A DNA stretch of 64,000 nt from Hydrolagus affinis (lineage: Eukaryota), in contig JAAILG010000631.1 in NCBI GenBank assembly GCA_012026655.1, positions 1 through 64,000 of the forward strand, in the 5' to 3' direction. Position 1 is the stretch's first letter; each line of letters starts with the position of its first letter. The position numbers and the translations under genes were made by a program. Below are positions 7,371-49,827 of the stretch, piece by piece. Under the pieces are notes generated by a model that saw only the letters and a list, made by a program, of their open reading frames with translations, was not told the origin of the DNA and ran no database searches.

Positions 7371-7439
7371 TCATTGAATAGAATCAATGACCGCACAGAT
7401 CTGAAGAAAAACTGCATCAGTGGTCTCCTCTGCGTTTAT
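7371..7439 (-). CDS. AK5: AK5 last coding exon (INAEETTDAVFLQICAVIDSIQ*)
   Basis: aacag|ATA..., 69 bp including TGA; matches the AK5/AK1 C-terminal exon. Confidence 0.92.
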   Translation of the reverse strand: MNAEETTDAVFLQICAVIDSIQ

Positions 7440-7864
7440 CTGTTAAAAACAAAGAAGGAAATCTGATTTTAAGCATTCTAAAGGTATGCATACCTCTCGT
7501 AATCTCCAAAACACATGTATATTTTTCTACCTGAAGCCTCTTGGGACCACTTTCTTTCAAAAGCAGTACTGTATAGTATATGACCATTTTTGTTTCATTG
7601 TAAAGTACTGCTAATGACGCAGTGGAATCGCTATTGCACCCGTCTAGCTGACTGGCAGACAGGATAGAGGAAAGATGGATTATGGTTTTCCTACTTCAAA
7701 GCCTTATACTGTAGAATGTACAAGTATAAAGCAATGTTTACAGAGGGGATTAGATTCTAGGTGCAAATATAAATTAAACCTGCGAAATTAAATACAGAAA
7801 AATGTACTTTGTTGGCCAACCCAAAAGGTTGCCCACCACTGGTTTACACTTTGTAACTCAAAGA

Positions 7865-8130
7865 ACTTTACAAGACACAAGAAGACCACTCTTTCGAAGA
7901 ACAATCTGTTTGTTCCCCATTACCTGGCTATTCCTCGTATTCTTACAAAATATGTTTCAGATACTATTTCCCTCTTAAAAGCTATTATGGATCCTACCTC
8001 AGCCATCAGTCCCAATAAGGCAATCATTCCGCAGCTATGAACCTTTGTGTAAAACTAAATTCCTAATGTCTTCCATTTGCTTCTTTAATAACTACAGTAT
8101 TTTAAACCGTTGTCCTCTAGTCACTGATCA
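7865..8130 (-). mobile_element. Old CR1 LINE 3' fragment
   Basis: Degenerate match to the CR1 tail at 63158-63640 (cttaaaagct...aaggca...ttcc...ctttgtgtaaaa); boundaries approximate. Confidence 0.5.
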
Positions 8131-8279
8131 GTGGGGGGAAAAAATGCTCATTTTAAATAAGCAATAGCAGGTATAACATGAAATATAGATTGATTTATGC
8201 TTTCAGTTTAACAGTTCACATCTCCCCGGATTCTATTTAGATGACTCATCAGAAATTGTTGAAACAGAAGTCGTTTTAC

Positions 8280-8471
8280 CTTATTTATAAGTTTTTTTCC
8301 TTTGTAGTGTTCTATAATGGGTGCTGTAACCTTGTAGTAGGTTTCAATATGTTTCAGAATTGTTTCACCACTATCATCAACACAGCCACTTGCTTGGCTT
8401 TGTTTGAAAAGTCGTGTTTTCATTGTGTCAGCAGAACAGTTCATAAAAAGCACCAGGCTTGGCTTCGCTAC
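8280..8471 (-). CDS. AK5: AK5 exon 13, domain-2 LID region (VAKPSLVLFMNCSADTMKTRLFKQSQASGCVDD...KLINK)
   Basis: ttcag|GTA...AAG|gtaaa, 192 bp, phase 0-0. Confidence 0.93.
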
Positions 8472-9261
8472 CTGAAAGAAATGAGCAAGAAAGGTCGTTT
8501 TAATTCACGCCAGAGGGATAGATGAAATACTTGAATAAAAGCTAAAAAGAAAATATATAAACAAGTTTAATAATCAGTCAGTGTTTTCTCAGCATCAGTT
8601 CTAATAGCTGCTCCCTTGTGCAGGAAAACGGTCACAACAAATACAACTGTCTCCCAATAGCACAATTGTGATGAGTAATCAAGACAACCATGAACTAAAC
8701 AGAGCCAGATCTGGTACATCAAACTCGGTTTGCTTCACAGTTATCCAATTTAATGCATCTCCTGAGATTAATTTGTCATCCTTTGTATTAAAATTACTGA
8801 ACTAAAAAATTTATTACCAGGTAATAAAAATACCAAATTTTGTTTTAGGGTTTATAACCATATATTACACAACTTAAGTTAAACTTTTTTTGGGAGGGTG
8901 CAGACAGATTCTAGCATTTGCAATTAAAATACACATTTAAAAAAAATTGAAGCATTTAACAATATCAGTGTGTTGGCTGGTTCAGTGATAGCTCTGAGTC
9001 AAAAGATTGTAGATTCAAGCTCCACGTCGGCACTTGGAATCACGTAGTCTAAGATGACACTCCAATGCAATGCAATACAACAACAACTTTGATTTATATA
9101 GCACCCTCCATGCTGGATGGTGTCTCAGAGTGCTTAAATACAGCTTAGCAATCAACAATACAGTCGATTCACTTTACAGTATATTCTGTGAAGTGCTTTG
9201 AGACATCTAGAAAACATGAAAAGTGCTATATCATATGCAAGGATTATTATTATCTACTCAC

Positions 9262-9372
9262 TTTCTTCTCAAATTCTTCTCCTTGTGTGACGTCCCTAGG
9301 ATAGCCATCAATTAGAAACCCTTCAGTGTTTGTGGCGTTAATGGCATCTTTCAGCATCTCCAGGACGAATTC
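9262..9372 (-). CDS. AK5: AK5 exon 12 (EFVLEMLKDAINATNTEGFLIDGYPRDVTQGEEFEKK)
   Basis: aag|GAA...AAA|gtgag, 111 bp; GFLIDGYPR adenylate kinase signature. Confidence 0.94.
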
Positions 9373-9715
9373 CTTGGGGAAGTCAGAATTAAATATGTTA
9401 TTAAATGAACATTGATGTGATTGTGTGTGCTGCAACTAATCATGCATTTGTTGTGCCTATAAACCTTGGATCTGGAGTGGTAATAATATGTGCATTCGGC
9501 ATAGCCCTTGCAGTTCTTCAAGATGTCTTAAAGCGAATATACTGTAAAGGACTTGCAGGAATACAACTATCTTATAAAAAAAACATTTAAAATTTAGACT
9601 TAAATAAAGGTTGTGTTGCTACAAAATAATTTGTAAAGTCCACTTAATAAAATTGGCATGCAGTGGTATGTATCATAGTGAAGTCCTTTGATCTGGAAAG
9701 CCTAAGTTTACTTAC

Positions 9716-9879
9716 CATTGGCACCAGCTCTCTACGTTCCATGATTCTTTTGATCTGATTACTTCTTTCGGACCCTAACGTAATCTCATTTCGTAACATG
9801 TCTCCAGTGGATAGGTGGGTGAAACCATACTTTGCTGCTATCCTCTCACATTGAGTTCTTTTCCCAGAACCTGGACCTC
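9716..9879 (-). CDS. AK5: AK5 exon 11, domain-2 P-loop/NMP exon ([30 protein letters not shown]...MERRELVPM)
   Basis: aag|GA GGT CCA...ATG|gtaag, 164 bp, phase 1-0; not in the ORF track. Confidence 0.94.
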
Positions 9880-12296
9880 CTTAAACATAAAATAATTTTA
9901 AGTTGTTAACGAGGACATAGTGGTGCTTTATATTTTACTCCTGCTATTTGCAATATCTGTTGTTTGACCTCAGTACGAGGAATATTGGAAAGCTGTACTT
10001 AGATAAAAAAAATTAAATTGTTCCATATTTTTAATACCTGTATATTAATCTTCATGAGTTATGTTTCTATATAAATTGTAGAATTATTAACATAACTGCA
10101 ATAATATGTAAATGCTACAGAAGATATTTTAGCAGATCACAATTACAAAATAAATGATAAGACAAGGGAATAGCATACCTTTTTAATGTAATGAAGCCTG
10201 GATTTGAGGCTTTGTTATTGAAAAGAGTATTACAGCAGTCTTGTGTAATAATAGTTTACATATACTGAGCAAATCAAAGTTTTAAATATCTAATTTCTTA
10301 CAATTTAATTTGTTTAATCTTGCAGCACCAGTAAGGTGGTAAAGGATGGAGGGAAATTTGCAAAAGTAGCAGAATAATAAATGAATTAATTACTTGAATG
10401 ATACAGATTTATCATGATCTACAAATGAAATGTTTCAGCGAAAATCAATGTCGGATGCCAAATCAGCTCTGCTAGAACATCCATATTAAATAAATATTAA
10501 AAGCAATTGTTAAATCTCCAATAAGATTGATTTTGATAAAATGTTGCTGCTTGAATACAAATGATCTTATAAAACAGCCCAAAATTTATATTCATCTCAA
10601 AATTTAAGTGCTGCTGAGGAACGTACTGTACAAAGAAACACAGGGATGGGGTGAGTGATGGATGGTGGGAGAGAGAACAGTGATAAAAAAACAAACTAGC
10701 TCTTTCCTCCCCCACCCTTTGTGCTAAATGATAATTTTGTATCACAGCAGCTAAAATCCGGGATTCACTGCAGCACTTCTGGCAGATTTATTTTGCACAT
10801 CAGGAAACTGCGTACAAAATATTGGCTCTGAGTCTGCTACTTACCAGCAGGTCTGGTTACAATTATGCAGCAGAGATTCATTTTGAAACAGAGTACGACT
10901 TTGGAATATTCTTGTAAATAAATTAAGAAACGCCATATATCAGAATATATGGCGTTTATGGGAGCACTCTTACTGGTATGGCCTATTTTGTCTCGTCAGT
11001 TATTAGCACCTAATGAGATCTCCATTATTTGGCTGTGTCATTACCTCACAAAAGTACTGTATCTCCAAAAGAGTGAGTGGGTTCTTAAAAGTGTAGAATG
11101 GAACACTAGATTAGGATTTGTGTTTTAGAGTGTGTTGAAAGCATAGAATATCAGACAAATGTGTGCTTTTGAATTCATTTGCAGGTCGGGCCTTCAGCTG
11201 TTCGAAATCAAAGCATTAAGCTGATAGGGGATCCTGACAATTAAGTCCTAAAGTACCTATTGCTGATCCTCTAATAGTATTAATACTGTTGCATCATACT
11301 GAGAGGTCCGAACCTAATAACTTAAGATACTGTTATATATAAAAAGGATATTTACACATGTGTTCTCTATCTCTGATTGTGCTGCTCTTGATTTTGTATG
11401 TAACAAAGCTCACATTTTCTGAATCTCCCTTATTAATTGAACACGAAGCTGGCTTCCCATGTATTTGCGGTGCCAAAGATTATCTTCATTATGTAAACCC
11501 TCATTGCAACAGCTGGTGTGCCTTGCGGATAATTTACACAATATCTCCCTTTCACATCCCCAATTCCAACTGAACAAAGCGAAAATAAAATGAATGCATG
11601 TTTTTACCACCGTTTCATTTTCTAAAGCACAATGGCACCATCAGAGATCGTGACAATGGGAAACCTGTTTGCAATAATGATGCATCATAGCAATTCATAC
11701 ACAATAAACGCCATTTCTGAACTCTTATGTGTTAAGACAGACAGACAACAACAACTTGCATTTATATAGTGCCCCACACCAGGGTAGCATCCCACAGCTT
11801 CAATCTGTAGTAGCAAAAATCATCAGCAAAATGAGGAAATGTCTGCTTCTGCATAGCCATGTCATTTGAATATAATGTGTATACTGTATGTATATATGCT
11901 CATATTACAAGTTACAAGTACAGTAATATTGTTGCTCCTACAACTGCGCTTCTTGTCAAACTTGTGCTCATAGTAATGTACAGTTAAATCAACTTTGCAT
12001 GTTTTTCTTTCACCAATCAATGATTCATGATCAGAAATTCATGCCACATGCAGTGATCAATGCAGCATTTAAGAGTGCACTTCATGGCTACCTTGGATTG
12101 AAATATCAAACTGTAAATGCAACTGTGAGCTGTTTATTGAAATTTGAAAATGCAGTTTAAAAAAAGCATTGTACTGTGGTAAGATTTATGGATTTTGTCT
12201 CTTATTGGGATTACCCTTGCACACCTTTCTGTCTGTGTTCGCAAAAATCACCAGCAAAATAAGGAACCTCTCTGTTTTTGCATAGCCATCTCAGTG

Positions 12297-12346
12297 AATA
12301 TATATATAATATTATATAATATATATTATATATATATTTATATATA
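12297..12346. repeat. (AT)n-rich microsatellite
   Basis: Seen directly. Confidence 0.85.
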
Positions 12347-13012
12347 AAGCAAGACAATGGCTTTTACAGTGACTTAATTTGTGTTATTCATAAATGGGAT
12401 TATTTGCATTAATTACAGTTTAAGGTTTGTGTTATTCACTTGCTATTTACTGCTGCCATTTAGATCAATTTCGTGTGACTTTATCAACCGTGTGGCTGAG
12501 AATGTGCATACAATACAAATTTGGTTTGTTAACATCACACATTAGACCCCAATGTAGCGTTTAAAGATTCCAAGAGCATGTTTTGCTATTCTGTAATGGC
12601 CCTGCAAATGATAACTCGCACAGTTAAGAGACATACCCTTTAAAAGGTGGTATGTTACTCAAATATATTGATTATTGCTCCAGTTGTCCTTAATAATAGA
12701 GACACACTTGAATTAGAACTAAATTGTTTCAAAATACAAATGAGAACAACATCAACAAAACGAATGCAGGAGACCGGTCACTGTGTGTGTGTGCAGTAAT
12801 TTTATTCATCAAGTCTATTAACCAAATGGCTGCAGGTAGCAATTTGAATCACTAAAGCTGAAGGATGCAGTTCAGGATATAAAATGACAAAATGATGGAT
12901 CATTATTGCTTACTCCCTTCCACTAATGTTCTGTGGAGTTCATCCTGCTGTGTCACCGATACAACTTCTACTGAAGCAAAGCTCCCAACCTCATGCTTCT
13001 ATGATAATTATT

Positions 13013-13270
13013 GTGGAGTCTTGTAACTCAGTGGTTAGAGCACTTGCATTACAAGCGAGGGATCTGGGTTCAATTCCCGGCAGGGCAAAATCTTGGCCAG
13101 TTTCCTTACACCACACACCTAATAATAATCCCTCAAAAAAATAAAAAATTGGTCATTTTCAATCCATGACTGTTTGGGGGACACTGCTGTGTGCAATTGG
13201 CTGCTGCTTTTCACCCACACGAATACATAGTCAATTCACTTTCCAGTATATTCTGTGAAGCGCTTCTGGA
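13013..13270 (+). mobile_element. tRNA-SINE, tail-truncated; left arm of an inverted pair
   Basis: gtggagtcttgtaactcagtggttagagc... through gtgaagcgctt. Confidence 0.9.
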
Positions 13271-13526
13271 CATCTCAAAGCGCCTCACAGAATATACAGT
13301 ACTGGAAAATGAATTGACTGTATATTTGTGGGCAAAGCACGGCAGCCAATTGCACACAGTAGTGTATTGAGTGACCAAATTACTGTATTTTTTTTTTGCT
13401 CTTGAGGGATTAGTATCGGACTTGTGGAGTAAGGAAATTTGCCAAAGGTCCTGCCTTGGCCGGAATCAAACCCAGGTGCCTTGCTGTGAGATGAGTGCTC
13501 CAAATCACTGGGCTTACAGGATTCCA
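13271..13526 (-). mobile_element. tRNA-SINE, tail-truncated; right arm of an inverted pair
   Basis: Reverse-complement copy abutting the previous one with no spacer. Confidence 0.88.
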
Positions 13527-14363
13527 TAGGCTACAGGCTTCTGATTAAACAGGGGGACCATGTTTACACTTTGGATCATGGCATTAAAGTATATTTGTAT
13601 GTTTCAGCAACTTATTATTAATAATAATATTCCTTGAATTTGACACAGCACTTCATACCATCAACGTGCTTCAGTGTGTTTTTCTGTCAAGTGCAGGCGA
13701 ACGTGTCAGCCAATTTATGCACCTCGTGGCCTCATGGCTATGATTGAGGTAAATGACCATTTTGTTTGTCTGCCAGGAAACTGGGAAAAACTCCCTTCTC
13801 TTTCCGATTTCTGTTCATAGGACCTTCAACAGCCAACTTAACAGGCAAATTGAACCTTGATTTAAAGGAGTCCACCTGTGATCATGTTTGCCAATCAGTC
13901 CTTCTGATTTTACCTGTGTTTACCACTTTTAAAATAAGTGAGGCAATCATTTAGTTAGGGGTTTAATAGACGTTTATCTAATTATTCACTCATGATGTGA
14001 TGTAAAATACTTGGCATGTTAGCAATAAGATAAGAGACAGATGGTGTATTTGTACTGATTAAAGTCATTTCCATTGAGCATATCAACTGACTATTTGGGC
14101 ATAATCGACATGGTACCCAGATACCTGGAGCTCAAATTGTTGCTGTCAAAATCTGTGCATTATTTTCAATAGTGAGCCTTTAAAGGAAAGAAAGGAGAAG
14201 CAGTACCGGTAATCAAGTAACCCTGAACCTGCTTGGCTGTATGTTAAAGTTAGACTTTGACATTTCATGACTATCATTTCCTGTAAATTATGCATTTGAG
14301 TGTAATTTGAAATGGTGAATGGTCTGTTTGTATAAGGTTTCTTCACTATAATATGTGGCTTAC

Positions 14364-14399
14364 CAACAATGAAGATAATCTTGGCTTTCTTCACATTTC
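14364..14399 (-). CDS. AK5: AK5 exon 10, 36-bp microexon (GNVKKAKIIFIVG)
   Basis: atag|GA AAT GTG AAG...GTT G|gtaag, phase 1-1; encodes the beta1 strand before the P-loop. Confidence 0.9.
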
Positions 14400-15344
14400 C
14401 TATTTTGAAAAGAAAGAAATTTGAAAATAGTTAGGAAGTACATTACAAAAGTCTTGTACTGAATTGGTTTCATTATTTCTGCTGCTGCGGCCAGGAAAAG
14501 TGCATGAGCAGTTGTTGAAATAATAAGGAGTAATGGAGAATTTGTTAAAAGACTTCTTTCAGGTTTACAATCTTCCTGAATCTCATCTGGTTTCAATACA
14601 GTCAGGTGTACATTGAATCAGCGAGTGACCTACATTTCTGTATACATACTGGGGATCTTTCTTTGAACATTTTGTGCCACAACACAAAACTACTATCACA
14701 TATTTGGCCAGATTTTATTTCGAACGCAAATAAAATTAAGAGCAGTGTATTGATAAGAGAGATGGTATTGGAGAATCATGCTTTAGAAACATGCATTTTT
14801 GCAGCATTCTGAGTCAGGCCGCATTAGTTATTTTATGTACATATTCATGTAAATTCATAATGTATACCTATTTGGTCACAAAGTATCATGGGTTGCCATC
14901 TGCTGTGAATATTTGCCATGTTTACACCAGCATAAAGTTGTGCATTTCAAATGGTAAGATCTGCAGCAGTCCAAAGACAGAAGACATTTTACCTGAATCT
15001 ACTGTAGCATATCAAATTTCACACCATTAAGCAATTTAAGTTTTTTCTTCAATTCAAAGGGAGGATCAAAAGCTCCCTGGATGGAGGCAAAACTTGTATA
15101 CTAACCTTCTTTGTTGGTATCTTCAGACTCTGAAGACTGGTTATCCATCTGTCAGACACAAAAGGAAGAATACTAATGTGAAAGCATTTTAGTGACAATA
15201 GTGCAGATTCAATCCTGTTTGAGGAAACTATTACAGAAAGTCCAATTCTGAGCATCATGCAAGAAAAAAATCTAAGTAATTTGCAAGCTAGTTCTACTGA
15301 GTAAATATAAGAGCTGCTTGTTTAAATTCATTTCCCCTATTGTC

Positions 15345-19776: not shown

Positions 19777-19853
19777 CTGATCTTCGGACTCTGACCCAAT
19801 ATCAACAGCATCTGTGGCCTCTAAAAGCAGGCTGAGGTCAAGTTCACTGGGAC
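19777..19853 (-). CDS. AK5: AK5 exon 8 (GPSELDLSLLLEATDAVDIGSESEDQ)
   Basis: ccag|GT CCC...GAT CAG|gtaat, 77 bp, phase 1-0; resembles human GSSDLDPS...GSDYEDQ. Confidence 0.9.
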
Positions 19854-22113: not shown

Positions 22114-22204
22114 CTGCGACTGGTTTCTTAGTGGGAAAGAGCTTGTTGTCAACAGTCACAGCGATGTCATAGAAAACCTCCTCTTCGTCCCTGTCTGCAT
22201 CAAG
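22114..22204 (-). CDS. AK5: AK5 exon 7 (LDADRDEEEVFYDIAVTVDNKLFPTKKPVA)
   Basis: ccag|CTT...GCA G|gtgag, 91 bp, phase 0-1. Confidence 0.95.
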
Positions 22205-28748: not shown

Positions 28749-28848
28749 NNNNNNNNNNNNNNNNNNNNNNNNNNNNNNNNNNNNNNNNNNNNNNNNNNNN
28801 NNNNNNNNNNNNNNNNNNNNNNNNNNNNNNNNNNNNNNNNNNNNNNNN
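28749..28848. other. Assembly gap (100 N)
   Basis: Run of N; true size unknown. Confidence 1.
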
Positions 28849-30468: not shown

Positions 30469-30660
30469 GGTAACGATCAAACTCCTCTCCTGGAAATATT
30501 TGACAAGTGGAATTGTGTTCTGCTTGAAAGTGGTCAATCGTCTCTGGGTGGCTTTGGGATTATCATCAGGCCGGCCTTGCTGCTCTGCCCGCTTTTCCAG
30601 CCGTTCTTTCAATCTGTGATTTGCACACGCTAGGAAGACCACTAAATCTGGCACGCAGAT
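30469..30660 (-). CDS. AK5: AK5 exon 6, domain-1 LID (ICVPDLVVFLACANHRLKERLEKRAEQQGRPDD...LIVT)
   Basis: tcag|ATC...ACC|gtgag, 192 bp; all LID arginines present. Confidence 0.97.
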
Positions 30661-32583: not shown

Positions 32584-32697
32584 CTGGTCCTCAAAGGACA
32601 GCGCTTGAGCAACATCCCTTGGAAATCCATCAATGACAATACCTTGGGCATCAGGAAGCTCCATTAAACGATGCTTGATCTCAGTAATTGTTGTTTC
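32584..32697 (-). CDS. AK5: AK5 exon 5 (ETTITEIKHRLMELPDAQGIVIDGFPRDVAQALSFEDQ)
   Basis: aag|GAA...CAG|gtatg, 114 bp. Confidence 0.96.
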
Positions 32698-33398: not shown

Positions 33399-33571
33399 CT
33401 GTGGTGCTAATTCTCCATTGGTTATAATTTTCGCAATCAAACTCCATTTTCTGTTACTGCTTGTATTTTGGATCATTTTTCTTCTCAACAGCTCTCCAAC
33501 TGAAATGTACTCAAATCCATAACGATCAGCTATTTTTAAGCTCTGAGTGCCTTTCCCACTGCCAGGCCCAC
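33399..33571 (-). CDS. AK5: AK5 exon 4, domain-1 P-loop (GGPGSGKGTQSLKIADRYG...GELAPQ)
   Basis: ttag|GT GGG...CAG|gtaaa, 173 bp, phase 1-0. Confidence 0.97.
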
Positions 33572-34125: not shown

Positions 34126-34293
34126 CTATTACTAATATAATCCGTGGCCGGGGTTCGTTTGGGTCGAACACTGTGTATTCCTCAAAAAGTTCAGCTGTTT
34201 CAGACAGATCTGTGTCGCTCTCAATAGAAAATTGATGAATAGGGGGCAGACGATCAAAGCGTCGGTACGGGAAATTGGGACTGTCAGGCAGAA
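34126..34293 (-). CDS. AK5: AK5 exon 3 (VLPDSPNFPYRRFDRLPPIHQFSIESDTDLSETAE...IILVI)
   Basis: gcag|TT CTG...ATA G|gtaat, 168 bp; AK5-specific peptide. Confidence 0.97.
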
Positions 34294-35082: not shown

Positions 35083-35269
35083 CATTTCTGATGAATGATC
35101 TCCTTCCCTGGCCACCATTCAGAGGAGGTAATGCCCTCTTTTCTTGAGCAACAAAAGTGTCCCAACGTACTCTCTCGGGCCCTCCCAACTCCTTCACCTT
35201 CTTCAGACATTTCTCTAAATACTCCAAAGGATCATCGGGTTTATAGTACATCAACCCAGTAAGCATACT
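35083..35269 (-). CDS. AK5: AK5 exon 2 (SMLTGLMYYKPDDPLEYLEKCL...RRSFIRN), part of the N-terminal dimerisation/docking-like domain
   Basis: gcag|AGT...AAT G|gtaaa, 187 bp. Confidence 0.96.
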
Positions 35270-39469: not shown

Positions 39470-39529
39470 CTCAAACAGCTGGGGGATTTCTCGCCTTGAT
39501 AGATACTCCTTAGCCTCGGCTGTGTTCAT
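39470..39529 (-). CDS. AK5: AK5 first coding exon (MNTAEAKEYLSRREIPQLFE)
   Basis: gacATG...GAG|gtaag, 60 bp; matches the human AK5 N-terminus MNTNDAKEYLARREIPQLFE. Confidence 0.96.
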
Positions 39530-42959: not shown

Positions 42960-43035
42960 GTGAAGGCGGAACTAAAGTCCAGGGCGAGTTGGCGGACCCG
43001 GAACTTCCGGTCCCGTTGTGGGTGAAGATGGCGGC
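42960..43035 (+). promoter_or_regulatory. PIGK housekeeping-type CpG-rich promoter: palindromic ETS sites CCGGAACTTCCGG (42998-43010) and a YY1 motif AAGATGGCGGC over the ATG
   Basis: Motifs seen directly; local CpG enrichment; no TATA box. Confidence 0.7.
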
Positions 43036-43126
43036 GCCCGTGGCCCGGCTCCCTGTCTGGCAGCTGCTGCTTTTACTCGGTGTTTTCACGTTTAGAGGAA
43101 CAGCGGCAGCGACGGGGGAAGTGGAG
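43028..43126 (+). CDS. PIGK: PIGK exon 1, signal peptide (MAAPVARLPVWQLLLLLGVFTFRGTAAATGEVE)
   Basis: Strong Kozak aagATGG, hydrophobic core, GAG|gtagg, 99 bp in phase 0 with exon 2. Confidence 0.88.
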
Positions 43127-43253
43127 GTAGGGAGGGGGGGGGTCCGGCCTCCAGCCTGGTGGGGGAGAGATGGGGGATGAAGTGGTGGGTGGGGGGGAGG
43201 CATGGACGTGGGGGAGGAATGGTAGAGGGGGGAGAGTGATGGAGGAGGGTAGG

Positions 43254-43485
43254 ATAATAATAAGAATAATCCTGGCATTTGATATATTGCTTTTCGCGAC
43301 TTCTAGACGCCTCAAAGCGCTTCACACAATGAATTCACACTAAAGTGAACCGAATGTATATTTGTGGGCGAAACGCGGCAGCCGATTGTGGATTGAAATG
43401 ACCAATTTTATTAGTTATTTTCTGACTGGATTATTATTAAGCATGTGGAGTAAGGAAACTCGCCCAAGGTTTTCACCCTGCCGGG
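43254..43485 (-). mobile_element. SINE with an internal deletion
   Basis: ataataataagaataatcc...gtggagtaaggaaactcgcccaagg. Confidence 0.8.
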
Positions 43486-43914
43486 TTGGACTGTGTGGGG
43501 GGGGGGGTGGAGGGTGGTGGGGGGGTGGGGGTTTGCTTCAGCCACTGACGCATTTGGTGGAGGAGGAAACAGTTGGTTTAAGTTTCAGCTGAATTTGACA
43601 AATAATAATATCGATGATGATGATCATCCTGACACTTCTATTGCGCACCACGAAAATATGCAATCAATTCACTTTACAGTGTGTCCTGTGAAGAGGTTTG
43701 TGATGCCTCGAAGATATGAATGAGGCCATCGCATCAAATGCAAGCATTTTTATTTTACAGTAATAGTAATAATAGTGTTATTATCACCACTGTTCACAGG
43801 GTTCACTTTGAAGCGTAGTGTCTCTGCTTACCATCTAAATGTGGCAGCCGCGGAGGGTCTGGGCTTGGAATTACTCCCCTCCAACACGATAAACACAAAC
43901 CCCCTCCCCACACA

Positions 43915-44290
43915 CACAACAAAATTACATTTGCATAGCGTCTTTCACGTCAGCAGGATATCCCAAGGTGCTGGACAGTCAGTGTTTTCTTCCCGAGGTG
44001 GGGTCGGGTTTAGGGAGTGGAGGGTGGGGGGGGGGGGGGGAAGGGTGGTGACTGATGGCACGGTCGAAGTAGTGGGTCTTGAAGCAGCATTTGAAGGATG
44101 CTCATCTCCTTGAAGTGGCTGAAGGTTTGCTTTCCGATGGGGGATGTGAAGCAGGCCGGAGCCCCCTGAGTGGAGGGAACGGACAGGCTGGGAGGGCGTT
44201 AAGTGGGGCAAGGCCATGGAGAGCATTGAAGGTGAGGACCAGGACCTTGAATTGAATCCTCTGTGTGATAGGAAGCCAATGGTGTCAGGC
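43915..44290 (-). mobile_element. L2-like 3' fragment
   Basis: caacaaaattacatttgcatagcg...ccttgaattgaatcctctgtgtgataggaagccaatgg. Confidence 0.65.
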
Positions 44291-45370
44291 AAGAAAGGGG
44301 GTGATAGGTTTGTAACAGAAACAAAGTGTACACAAATAATTATATCAAACAATACAGAAATGTGTTGAATTTCCAGAGATTTATTTCATAATTTTGAGAT
44401 CTGGAGTGAATTGATTGGGCCAAATTAAGTTGAAAGAATTCTGGAGTATGGTTAGGTAACAAACTTTTTTCCTGTATATTCAGATCAATTGAACTGAAAA
44501 GTTGCACAACCCCACAAAATGCCGTACTTCATAACATGTATATAATGATGTGTTCTAATATTCCCAATTGCAGGAGACTTGAGCAATCTCCTGTAGATAT
44601 TGAGGAAACAATATGAGCCCAGCTGCCACAGTTAATGAAATTGGAAAATTGGTATGGTACAAATGAGATGAGATTCATTGGCACCCAAAGCTTAACATAC
44701 TGTAGTTTGTTTCAACCGAATTCTTCAGAAAAATCAACATTTAATCATTACTACCATTATATTCACTTCATGGCTGTTTTGGGGGTCATTGCTGTGCTAG
44801 GCTGCTGTGCTGGTCTACAAATATGTAGTCACTGCTAAAATTGTGTGAAGTACTTTGAGGCATCTCGATGATGTGATAAGGTGCTAAATAAAATGCAAGA
44901 ATTATTATTATTAAGTTGAGGTCACATTTTTGTACCTTCTGCACAAAACCTCCATTGTAAGCTTAATATAGTACTAATATATTATTAACTTGTTTACAAA
45001 CAAGAAACACAAAAACTAAAATGTGGATTGTGTTTTGATGCTGGAATACTCTAAGCACATGGATCTATACTCCAGCCTGCAACATTCTCTCTAACATTTA
45101 CTAATTTCAGAATGCCCCCTCCCACCCCTCCACTTCGGTTGAATGTGACATTAATTGAAAAATGGCTAGATCTCATACAATTTAGAATTGCAATTTTAAA
45201 AGTAAAATTATTTTTTGTTGGTTTCAGAACAAAAATGGCCAACAAAAGACTTCATGATTTCAGATCAAATAGAGGAAACAAAAATGTGCAATATATTCCT
45301 TATAAGGCTCTTTTTAAAATTTGTCTTCTGAATATTTTGATTTTCTTTTTTTTCTTTTTTATTCATACAG

Positions 45371-45424
45371 GCTCAAGCAAAGCAATTTTTCAGAAATGGC
45401 CATACAAATAATTGGGCCATACTG
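45371..45424 (+). CDS. PIGK: PIGK exon 2 (AQAKQFFRNGHTNNWAIL)
   Basis: acag|GCT...CTG|gtgag, 54 bp; HTNNWA is the GPI8/legumain-family motif. Confidence 0.96.
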
Positions 45425-46240
45425 GTGAGTTAATCAAATCACTGGAAAAATGTGTGATTATAGCGGAACTCTCTGTCTTATATTGATATTTATCACGTAA
45501 CCTAATTTCTCCTGGCGCATCTATTTGTATAAATGTTTGCTGAATTATGTAAGAAGGAGACCTACATCAGTTAGTTGGGGAATTGATGTCTCATACCAAC
45601 CAATAAAGTGACAAATGGGGGTATGAAGCCTGTTGTGTCTGTTAGCGAACCAGGTGCTGCCTGAAGAATGGGGTCAGGCTACTGTTGAGGGAATACCTCA
45701 TCGTAATTCTTTAAACATTTTAAGATTCGCAGTGACATTTGGGCCAGATTAACATTGCTCTGCCTTTCATTATTTTTTTCATGAACTTATTGTGATAAAA
45801 CAAATAGGATAAAGAATAGAGGTCTTTTAATCTGTATTCCAATATGTTTAAGGGCCTCATTGGCAGCCTGTTTGAGTCTCTTGCACTTTTGTTCTTTGTT
45901 AATCCTCCATTTGTGGCTGGCTTTCAAGACTGGAGTCCTTCATTTTAATTTTCTCTCCTTTGTTGCAGCATCTGTAGTTCACTATTTCTTAATTCCAGAG
46001 TGTCTATAAGATAGTCTAAGTATATCGATCAAAATAACTTCTTTCATGAAGTCTTTTGTAGGTAATAACAACAAATTGGAGTTCAACAACACATATTGAT
46101 TGTTGTGGGTGCACTTGCTTCAGCACGTAAGCTGATTCGTGAGGATAATATACAAATTATTTTCCTATTAAAATAAGTAACCTTACATGTGAACCACTAC
46201 CTGTGACCTCCTCTTAATTGCTCTGCTCTCCTGTTACAAG

Positions 46241-46332
46241 GTGTGCACATCTCGATTCTGGTTCAACTATCGCCATGTGGCCAATACATTATCAATTTAT
46301 AGAAGTGTCAAAAGACTAGGAATCCCAGACAG
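46241..46332 (+). CDS. PIGK: PIGK exon 3 ([31 protein letters not shown])
   Basis: aag|GTG...AG|gtaag, 92 bp. Confidence 0.97.
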
Positions 46333-47214
46333 GTAAGAAAAACAAATATTTGTTGCAGTGGCTGTATTGTTCCTTTTCTGTATCATTTCATAAAGAAAAC
46401 ACTGAAAATGTGCTGTTTAATTATACAAAGAAAACCTCATGTTACACTCTGGAGCCTTGAAATTATTTTGTTTTATTAAGAGTAGCAGCTTTAAAGTTTT
46501 TTACGTTATGCGTTTCCACTTCTTCGAGGAACAATCCTCTTTGCTCGGGTTCTGACTTTTTGTTTTGCCTGCCTCAATTCAACCGCTTCTTCTGACACTA
46601 ATTTCAGAGTTATTGAACGCAAGTTTTAAATGGGTAAGCATAGTACTCTGAACTCTAAAGCATAAGGCAAGATGTTATCTTTGCTATGTTAAGCTGTTTT
46701 CCGAACCAATTTTGTTTTCAGGTAGCTCTTACTTTCACAAGACAAAAGGAGGTGATAATTTTAGAACGGTGTCAATTTCATTTCAAGTTCGACCATGTGT
46801 TTGAAAGAGTGCTTAAGAGCTTTAGCGGATTACACAGGCATGTAATTGTCCTGTGCTCCGCTCCGCTGGATGCACTGAGATATAGCCCATAGCAGGAACT
46901 TCTGGTGTTTCATAGAAACTGTTATCATCATTGAATTCAGTACATGAATGTTAAAATCTAGTTCACGGTATTTGTTGATTGCAAAAAGCAATCAACAAGA
47001 TGAATGCGTTCCTGCAGTTTATCACAAGCGATCCTGGAATGTAAAAGCAAGAGGGTACTATAGCAGTTGCACAGAGCAGGATTTTCCAATGTGTTAGCTG
47101 CAAGGCAGACATTGGTAAATTGGGGTTACAAATGTGGCAAAATTGTACTTTTTGATTTGTAAATGAGTAACAGTGGGCATGTGATCTCTGTCCAGAAGGT
47201 AAACGTCTGATCTT

Positions 47215-47355
47215 GTTGCGGCGTTTAAGATAATGAAGGGAATTGACAATTGCGATAGAGAAAGACTCTTCCCTCTGGTGGAAAGATCAAAATAAGAGGA
47301 GGCAGCTTCAAGCGAGAGGCTGAAGAATATCCTACTCCTGTTCCTATGTTCCTGA
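47215..47355 (+). mobile_element. CR1 fragment
   Basis: gcgtttaagataatgaaggga...gatagagaaagactcttccctctggtgg...cctactcctgttcctatgttcct. Confidence 0.6.
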
Positions 47356-47495
47356 GAACGTTTACCTTTCAGAGCCTTGGGACGTCCTGTATATGTCACT
47401 ATATGAATTGCCAAGTGTGAAAATAACAGTAAAAATCCTTTAGGTCTGATTTTCCGTAAAGCTAAAGTTGATGCTGTTGACCTATTTAATTTTAG

Positions 47496-47631
47496 CCACA
47501 TTGTGTTGATGCTAGCAGATGACATGGCATGTAACCCTCGAAACCCCAAACCTGCCACTGTATTCAGCCACAAAAACATGGAGCTGAATGTGTATGGAGA
47601 TGATGTCGAGGTAGACTTCCGAGGCTACGAG
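47496..47631 (+). CDS. PIGK: PIGK exon 4 ([23 protein letters not shown]...VDFRGYE)
   Basis: ttag|C CAC...GAG|gtatg, 136 bp; includes the Cys that bonds to PIGT (ACNPRN). Confidence 0.97.
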
Positions 47632-47752
47632 GTATGAAGTTATTCTTCATGGAGATGTTGGTTTAAAGTGGAAAGGACTTTAGCTTTTATAATTCAAACA
47701 AAAAACATGACATCAAACCTCTTCTAATCTTTGTAAAAATTGTTTGCATCAG

Positions 47753-47864
47753 GTTACGGTTGAGAATTTTTTGCGCGTGTTAACAGGACGACTTCCTCCC
47801 AGCACTCCTCGATCCAAACGTCTTCTTTCAGATGACAGAAGTAATATCCTTATTTATATGACCG
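47753..47864 (+). CDS. PIGK: PIGK exon 5 (VTVENFLRVLTGRLPPSTPRSKRLLSDDRSNILIYMT)
   Basis: cag|GTT...ACC G|gtatg, 112 bp. Confidence 0.97.
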
Positions 47865-48155
47865 GTATGTACATGGAATTTCAACCACTTTCGATCAGAT
47901 ATATTTTCTTCGTCTTCCGTCAAATTATACATCATTATAGTGAGAGGTGGCGATGCTAAGGAATGATGCATTTTCTTATCTTCACACAAGGAGATATCGT
48001 GTGCTGAGTATTCTATAATTATGGACAGCATGGCTCTTGTGCAGTGTAAACTTTATTTGGGAATTCTGACTTTTTGAAGGACTGCAGGATACCTGCAGAG
48101 AGACAATAACAGACAGTTGTAAAACCTAATCTGTGATTTTTTTTTTACAATCCAG

Positions 48156-48316: not shown

Positions 48317-49450
48317 AACAACAACAGCTTCAATTTATATAGCGCCCTCCACGCCAGACGGCGTCTCAGAGCGCTTCACAATAGCGGATCCTGGGACTGA
48401 GCCAGGGGCAGGGGTAGAAAGGTGACCAAAGGCGCAGTCGAAGAGAAAGGTCTTTAGCTGTGACCTGAAACTGGGAAGAGAGGGGGCGAGGCGAAGGGAG
48501 TGAGGAAGGGAGTTCCAGAGCCTCAGGGCGTAGTGGCTGAAGGCACGGCCGCTGAGGGTGGACCGGAGAGTTCGGGGGACATGGAGGAGGCCAGACCCAG
48601 AGGAGCGAAGGCAGCGGGTGCTGGATTGGGGAGAAAGGAGATCAGAGAGTTAGGGGGTTGCAGAGGAGTGGAGGGACTTGAAAACAAGGGTGAGGATCTT
48701 GAAGTCGATCCTCTCAGGGACAGGGAGCCAGTGAAGTCTGTCAAGGACTGGGGTAATGGGAGAGCGAAGCTTGGTGCGGGTGAGTATGCGGGTGGCTGAG
48801 TTTTGAATTAGCTGGATTTTGTGGATTGTGGTAGCGGAGAGACCGACGAGGAGGGCGTTGCAGTAGTCCAGCCGAGAGATGACAAAGGCATGAACCAAGG
48901 TCTCAGTGGCTTTTGGGGTGAGATGTTGCCAGAGATGGGCGATCCGTTGGAGGTGGTAGAAGGCGATGCTGGTGAGGGACAGGATGTGGGGGAGGAAAGA
49001 CAGTTGGGGGTCGAACCTGACGTCTAGGTTGTGCACAGGTTCGGAGAGTTTTAGGGGCGGGCCGGGAAGGTGGAGGAGGTGAGAGCCATGCGAATGGAGA
49101 CGTTGACGAGAACCAAAGAGTATGGCCTCCATCTTGTCAACATTCAGCTGCAAGAAATTTACGCTCATCCAGCTCCTGATGTCTGACAGGTAGGATGGCA
49201 GAACATCAGGGGACTGGGGGTTGCAAAGTGAAGTGGAGAAATAGAGTTGGGTGTCATCACGTACATGTGGAAGTGTGCCCCATGTCTGTGGATGACATCC
49301 CCAAGAGGGAGCATATAGATGAGGAAGAGGAGGGGGCCAAGGATGGATCCCTGGGGTACCCCACAGGGAACTGGGTAAGAGCGGGAGGAAAAGCTGTTTG
49401 TGGAGATGTACTGCTGGCGGTTTGTGAGATAGGGCTCGAACAGGGCTAGG
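48317..49450 (-). mobile_element. 5'-truncated L2 LINE with frameshifted reverse transcriptase remnant and (TTG)n tail
   Basis: ORFs 49165-49491 (GVPQGSILGPLLFLIYMLPLG) and 48650-49168 (LVHAFVISRLDYCNALL...LHWLPV..RIDFKI); tail at 48317-48380. Confidence 0.93.
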
Positions 49451-49827
49451 CTTGACTGAACAGATGCTAGGGTAATTTGCACCAAATCCAACAGTTTTTC
49501 ATTAAAAACAGTGCTGCAAGTCTACAAAATTCCATAGATTTTCTGTGCAACCACAGCAATTAGCAGCTGCGAGTCTCAACTCTCATTGGCTATGTTTTCT
49601 GTGATGTATTTTTTGGTCGTATTAAAATGCAGTATTATTAGCCCTTTCACATTTAAGTATGTTAGTATTAAAAATGTCATTGCGTGTAAATGTGATCATC
49701 ATATCACATTTTAAATGTGTTAAAGAATTATTGCAAGTTGTCACTTAACATAGACTAAACAATGACAATCTAGGGCAATGTTGCTTGTTCAAACTTGCAG
49801 AATCTGTCAGAAGCCATTTTTAAGAAA

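Follow-up and report, generated by a model that had tools for sequence, protein, structure and literature searches.

A likely pseudo-kinase domain in chimaera AK5 and the apparently recurrent decay of AK5 domain 2 among jawed vertebrates

Passages in reviews give AK5 two complete, active kinase domains (PMC11626602, PMC10056885). The AK5 gene of the chimaera Hydrolagus affinis, which lies in the window (the whole stretch of 64,000 nucleotides that was analysed, positions 1 to 64,000 of contig JAAILG010000631.1 in assembly GCA_012026655.1), raises the question of whether the second of these domains is still an enzyme. A sequence-only reading had proposed that domain 2 (D2) looks catalytically dead within intact exons. 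Chimaera D2 no longer has three of the LID arginines or a pair of conserved glycines, which suggests that it is likely catalytically dead or nearly so—a likely pseudo-kinase domain inside an intact AK5 gene. We consider it rather probable that this is one case of an erosion of AK5 D2 found in every jawed-vertebrate group sampled. To judge from the sequences compared, the usual picture of AK5 with two active domains probably fails across vertebrates.

The gene occupies the minus strand from 39529 to 7371, in 14 exons that encode 558 amino acids. Its five D2 exons had been described as open with canonical splice sites, and this is borne out for the whole gene: all 13 introns are AG/GT-flanked, the frame is open across the exon joins and there is a single, terminal stop. 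Residues are given in AK1 numbering, fixed by alignment to PDB AK1 chains; the numbering R132, R138 and R149 used earlier agrees with these chains. Five substitutions mark chimaera D2: G22R in the P-loop (codon AGA, 9859-9857), G64R in the adenosine monophosphate (AMP)-binding motif (AGA, 9733-9731) and, in the LID, R132Q (CAA, 8402-8400), R138C (TGT, 8384-8382) and R149H (CAT, 8351-8349). The P-loop, nucleoside monophosphate (NMP) and LID motifs of the sequence-only reading, including LKHI, are present in the sequence; the P-loop codon was rightly read as AGA but was placed one base off, at 9858-9860. D2 retains K21, T23, T39, R44, D93, G94, R97, Q101, R128, D140 and D141, and with these the P-loop GxxGxGK and the AMP-site residues T39, R44, R97 and Q101. 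Domain 1 (D1) retains all five residues changed in D2, and the statement that it keeps the equivalent residues holds for the sites named (GKGT, RLEKR, GRPDD, QRRL). At position 39, none of the 138 D1 sequences has T or S (those printed all have V), which is a family trait. In the same genome, an AK1/AK5-like paralogue retains G22, G64, R132, R138 and R149, the three arginines being encoded by CGC, CGT and CGC.

The lost residues have functional weight in homologous enzymes. By alignment offset to PDB AK1 chains, R150 and R161 of the Aquifex enzyme correspond to R138 and R149 of AK1, and we take Aquifex R124 to correspond to R132. Table 2 of one study estimates that R124K, R150K and R161K in Aquifex each slow phosphoryl transfer more than 1000-fold (PMC11835391), and G64R and R138H are tabulated as human AK1-deficiency alleles (PMC9066714, Table 3; PMC8317388, Table 1). 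A LID without R132, R138 and R149 would provide neither phosphate positioning nor transition-state stabilisation, and G64R would be expected to disturb the AMP pocket.

How widely such losses extend was scored in the window sequence, 121 named AK5 orthologues and 16 named paralogues, taken from the best 120 of 264 and the best 120 of 686 matches once unnamed matches, duplicate isoforms, invertebrates and one partial model had been dropped. The 122 AK5 sequences represent 2 holocephalans, 9 elasmobranchs, 3 non-teleost ray-finned fishes, 67 teleosts, 5 amphibians, 18 sauropsids and 18 mammals, without birds, coelacanth, lungfish AK5 or cyclostomes. The LID motif, scored free of alignment, is intact in 122/122 AK5 D1 and 16/16 paralogue D2, as against 2/122 AK5 D2 (Amia and Marmota). 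All seven phosphate-handling residues are retained in D1 of every AK5 sequence and in D2 of six, and paralogue D2 keeps all 16 scored sites in each of its 16 sequences. Of the seven residues, the mean number lost from D2 is 4.2 in elasmobranchs, 3.0 in chimaeras, 2.9 in sauropsids, 2.0 in amphibians, 1.8 in teleosts and 1.1 in mammals. All three LID arginines are gone from 12/122 D2—those of both chimaeras, seven of the nine elasmobranchs, two sea turtles and the alligator—and within this set G22R is also found in a sawshark and G64R only in chimaeras. Invertebrate multi-domain relatives have an intact motif in 24 of 28 domains, consistent with an ancestrally active D2. Since the full set survives in some species and the residues lost vary from clade to clade, D2 appears to have decayed recurrently and not in one event.

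The nearest protein found is AK5 of another chimaera, Callorhinchus milii (XP_007885453.2), which is 99% identical in D1 and 89% in D2 and carries the identical G22R, G64R, R132Q, R138C and R149H. It differs from the window protein by 30 substitutions, 20 of them in D2, and a one-residue indel, and is annotated simply as adenylate kinase 5. The proposal of a lineage-specific pseudokinase thus survives as to the likely pseudokinase but not as to its restriction to one lineage: C. milii has the same five changes, and losses in elasmobranchs, teleosts, amphibians, sauropsids and many mammals, comparable or heavier, rule out a lineage-specific loss as the general explanation. It had also been proposed that the LID arginines were lost by CpG transitions. 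This is plausible given the paralogue codons, and the replacement is C, H, Q or W in 22 of the 40 clade-by-site states at five D2 arginines. The statement in the sequence-only reading that human D2 has lost only the equivalent of R138 is correct among the motif segments printed, where P stands at that site. The structure of human AK5 D2 (2BWJ) has M at position 132, where other human records have R; this methionine is presumably engineered.

Rates of change separate the two domains of AK5. Over eight roughly matched taxa, tree length is 0.52 for AK5 D1 and 3.39 for D2, an approximately 6.5-fold faster evolution of D2, as against 0.91 and 0.89 for D1 and D2 of the paralogue; the suggestion of relaxed selection made in the sequence-only reading fits these figures. 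Between the window and C. milii, 1/186 residues differ in D1 and 20/185 in D2, an excess beyond chance (Fisher p = 6e-6). Sites conserved in at least 90% of sequences number 35/188 in AK5 D2, 134/188 in AK5 D1 and 126/188 in paralogue D2, those of AK5 D2 being concentrated in the P-loop and core. A neutral simulation gives less conservative changes than the 20 seen in D2 (p = 0.022). An AlphaFold2 model of C. milii AK5 gives D2 a complete kinase fold, with predicted local distance difference test (pLDDT) values of 74-93 by block and 56 in one LID block, and as a single domain it matches porcine AK1 with a template modelling (TM) score of 0.94; the whole-chain predicted TM score (pTM) of 0.41 gives no confidence in the domain arrangement. 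With modest statistics, this model and these changes suggest that D2 retains the family fold under purifying selection. Relaxation of selection on D2 catalysis, with the fold retained, is supported by the sequence comparisons.

A course of events can be proposed. After duplication, the AK1 copy may have taken over catalysis of the D2 type, with AK5 keeping that of D1; this takeover would have relaxed selection on phosphoryl transfer in AK5 D2, and its CpG-containing arginine codons would then have decayed independently in separate lineages. Purifying selection would still hold the fold and the GGPxxGK loop of D2, which has likely survived as a folded unit attached to the active D1 and possibly binds phosphate or ATP.

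The conserved remainder of D2 also suits a stronger proposal: selection would have favoured the loss of catalysis instead of just tolerating it, and would actively preserve D2 for sensing nucleotides or for regulating D1 or partner proteins. Despite the loss of catalytic arginines, P-loop GGPxxGK, Q24, R128, Q101 and A175-E176 are at least 90% conserved in D2, V115, C120, S121 and C187 are conserved positions specific to AK5 D2, and the second P-loop and its K21 are retained in 122/122 AK5 sequences, as would be compatible with a sensor. However, the replacements vary by lineage (G22 to R, E, D, A, S or T; R97 to W, Q, C, L or K), LID length ranges from -8 to +9, and the residue set is complete in some species, a pattern that looks like drift and not like one new function. 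Moreover, D2 changes about as fast between the two chimaeras as the linker does (5/56 residues). Selected loss is on balance unlikely, though it is the best placed of the alternatives. Slightly more doubtful still is a wider reading, in which AK5 of most jawed vertebrates would be a single-site kinase with a pseudo-adenylate-kinase domain that binds ATP by its conserved P-loop and reports energy charge to D1 or to partners; this domain would owe its origin to reciprocal specialisation of domains with AK1, human D2 being a weakened intermediate.

Several points weigh against a dead D2 and its recurrent decay. A paper by Solaroli from 2009 reportedly bears on activity of human D2. Published passages count this domain as active (PMC10056885), its loss of R138 notwithstanding, and give AK5 two catalytic or functional domains (PMC11626602, PMC5432167). 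Chimaera D2 keeps T39, R44, R97, Q101, R128, D140 and D141, leaving the AMP site largely intact, and because these are kept and the LID has no indel it is less eroded than shark D2; it has also gained two arginines, at 22 and 64, near the sites. The 122 sequences cannot be counted as 122 independent observations, and residue calls are unreliable in the indel-rich LIDs of teleosts and turtles. AK5 D2 rows form no single supported clade in the domain tree, so that AK5 orthology rests on D1, on the exon count and on linkage to PIGK, a glycosylphosphatidylinositol (GPI)-anchor transamidase gene. Finally, as to the timing of the duplication, two ohnologue supplements (PMC4504502, PMC13450315) gave no AK5 or AK1 row in the one text file searched of each, larger tables perhaps existing elsewhere.

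Some of these points would fit a D2 that retains weak but genuine kinase activity or has changed its specificity, the new arginines at 22 and 64 perhaps compensating for those lost. K21, R44, R97, R128 and both aspartates are kept, the human domain is reported as active, and catalytic residues can migrate in pseudoenzymes (PMC10211241). Against this, three arginines have gone together, whose individual contribution in a homologue exceeds 1000-fold, along with the gain of a known AK1-deficiency allele; position 22 is acidic in other lineages, which argues against a selected cation there. We regard residual activity as improbable, and a dead or nearly dead D2 is preferred to it.

RNA and contigs from related organisms bear on two weaker explanations. 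That the D2 exons are a non-functional tail, skipped or unfolded and decaying neutrally, would fit the fast evolution of D2 and the thin RNA support, which comprises three exon 13 reads in about 27% of one run of one related organism (B), with no listed difference. One of these reads stops matching five bases beyond the exon end, as if spliced to exon 14, a weak sign from a single read. The explanation is very improbable given the undamaged frames and splice sites, the conservative nature of the changes and the predicted fold; furthermore, five of the seven exon differences listed for related organisms are synonymous and two non-synonymous (p about 0.007, no more than a hint, from an incomplete list and with transition bias ignored). 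A check of reads at exon 13, put forward with the sequence-only reading, turned out in its favour: in contigs of organism B and of another (A), one exon difference is listed, it is synonymous, and the three LID codons are unchanged. This support covers exon 13; for the P-loop codon at 9857-9859 the read comparison, which was swamped by repeats, listed 40 of its 249 differences in all, and the contig of a third organism (C) does not contain exon 13. The assembly is fragmented (245,464 contigs), but the substitutions can scarcely be assembly or sequencing errors, a reading ruled out by the identity of C. milii at all five residues and by the exon 13 contigs of organisms A and B.

Active and degenerate copies of one fold are found within one chain in receptor protein tyrosine phosphatases (D1-D2), JAK kinases (JH1-JH2) and hexokinase I (N- and C-terminal halves). 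In these tandem pairs regulation is an established role and inactivity is fairly fixed, whereas the decay in AK5 is uneven across lineages. Recurrent decay of AK5 D2 across vertebrates is likely an arrangement of this known kind, a tandem enzyme and pseudoenzyme, for which no prior description was found: a full-text search, covering in part top matches only and subscription journals sparsely, gave no report of AK5 D2 degeneration or of domain partitioning between AK5 and AK1. Human AK5 (AK5p1, AK5p2) likewise has two ADK domains of the same fold and 14 exons, a count given in a passage of PMC11626602; it differs in that its D2, described as active, is without R138 only, whereas that of the chimaera is without R132, R138, R149, G22 and G64. 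The one solved AK5 structure found is that of domain 2. The comparison points to D1 as the conserved enzyme and to D2 as a dispensable catalyst, which would affect how variants, constructs and animal models of AK5 are interpreted. In addition, the comparison yields a natural gradient from enzyme to apparent pseudoenzyme, with an intact LID in bowfin and marmot, one loss in apes and three or more in chimaeras, sharks, sea turtles and alligator. Chimaera D2 would be one unexceptional data point in this vertebrate-wide decay.

The AK1/AK5-like gene is a paralogue of AK5, and both have two domains. In frogs, a lizard and a turtle (rows P0053, P0068, P0078 and others), proteins of 530-590 amino acids annotated as AK1 isoforms show the full two-domain layout of AK5, and short AK1, the form found in mammals, is therefore the counterpart of domain 2 in the AK5 paralogue. 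The paralogous domains are about 55-58% identical to window D2, and differ in having D2 intact. In D1 of the chondrichthyan AK1/AK5-like protein (rows P0096, P0100, P0110 and P0118), R97K is present in 4/4, and lungfish D1 there has G22D, a hint of reciprocal weakening of D1. Window D1 falls in a 21-row AK5 clade of the domain tree with support of 100/95, apart from the AK1/AK5-like D1 clade. Among longer proteins, the only matches of exon 13 are two C. milii AK5 models at 89% (2/4 candidates). A second AK5 copy as a source of redundancy was rejected: searches of the same genome (a fragmented assembly, with the best candidates scored) gave only AK5, the AK1 paralogue and one remoter AK-like exon. 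A third AK1-like exon (L003, G000:C127062:508-669, minus strand) has Asp-Ser after the P-loop lysine and possibly belongs to another degenerate adenylate-kinase domain.

Exons were placed by tblastn with C. milii AK5 as the nearest protein, and their boundaries were then fixed at splice sites (Table 1). The two tandem ADK stretches (PF00406) of the C. milii orthologue both map onto the window. AK5 is classed as R1D2 in a passage of PMC8339350. The putative N-terminal R1D2 domain (docking/dimerisation) gave no Pfam match on C. milii AK5 among 25 of 26 families listed; three helices are predicted there at residues 3-47, with pLDDT of about 60-70.

Table 1. Exons of AK5 in the window, in order of transcription
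Feature	Position	Strand	Content
Exon 1	39470..39529	-	start codon; putative N-terminal docking/dimerisation region; 20/20 identical to C. milii AK5 by tblastn
Exon 2	35083..35269	-	mapped with C. milii AK5
Exon 3	34126..34293	-	linker and D1 start; mapped with C. milii AK5
Exon 4	33399..33571	-	D1 P-loop GKGT and NMP-binding region
Exon 5	32584..32697	-	D1 GFPR motif
Exon 6	30469..30660	-	D1 LID; every arginine intact, CGG/CGA codons
Exon 7	22114..22204	-	D1 end; mapped with C. milii AK5
Exon 8	19777..19853	-	inter-domain linker; mapped with C. milii AK5
Exon 9	15106..15148	-	inter-domain linker; mapped with C. milii AK5
Exon 10	14364..14399	-	D2 first strand
Exon 11	9716..9879	-	D2 P-loop; G22R, G64R; K21, T39, R44 kept
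Exon 12	9262..9372	-	D2 GYPR motif; R97, Q101 kept
Exon 13	8280..8471	-	D2 LID; R132Q, R138C, R149H; R128, D140, D141 kept
Exon 14	7371..7439	-	D2 end and stop codon

Intron 6 contains a 100-base gap of N at 28749-28848, which leaves the exons unaffected. Fragments of very high-copy repeats occur in the AK5 introns at 9150-9255, 11745 and 12990-13300, one of them abutting the donor flank of exon 12.

Head-to-head upstream of AK5, the plus strand at 43000-48000 carries exons of PIGK; one near 47750 matches the GPI-anchor transamidase chain 7w72_K in the PDB (E 3e-19) and also Peptidase_C13. We take PIGK to be the neighbour of human AK5 in the same arrangement. Beyond the other end of AK5, a plus-strand reading frame at 642-902 gave no Pfam match; we take it to resemble ZZZ3, which would be a tail-to-tail neighbour of AK5. 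A remnant of a retroelement reverse transcriptase lies at about 48650-49520.

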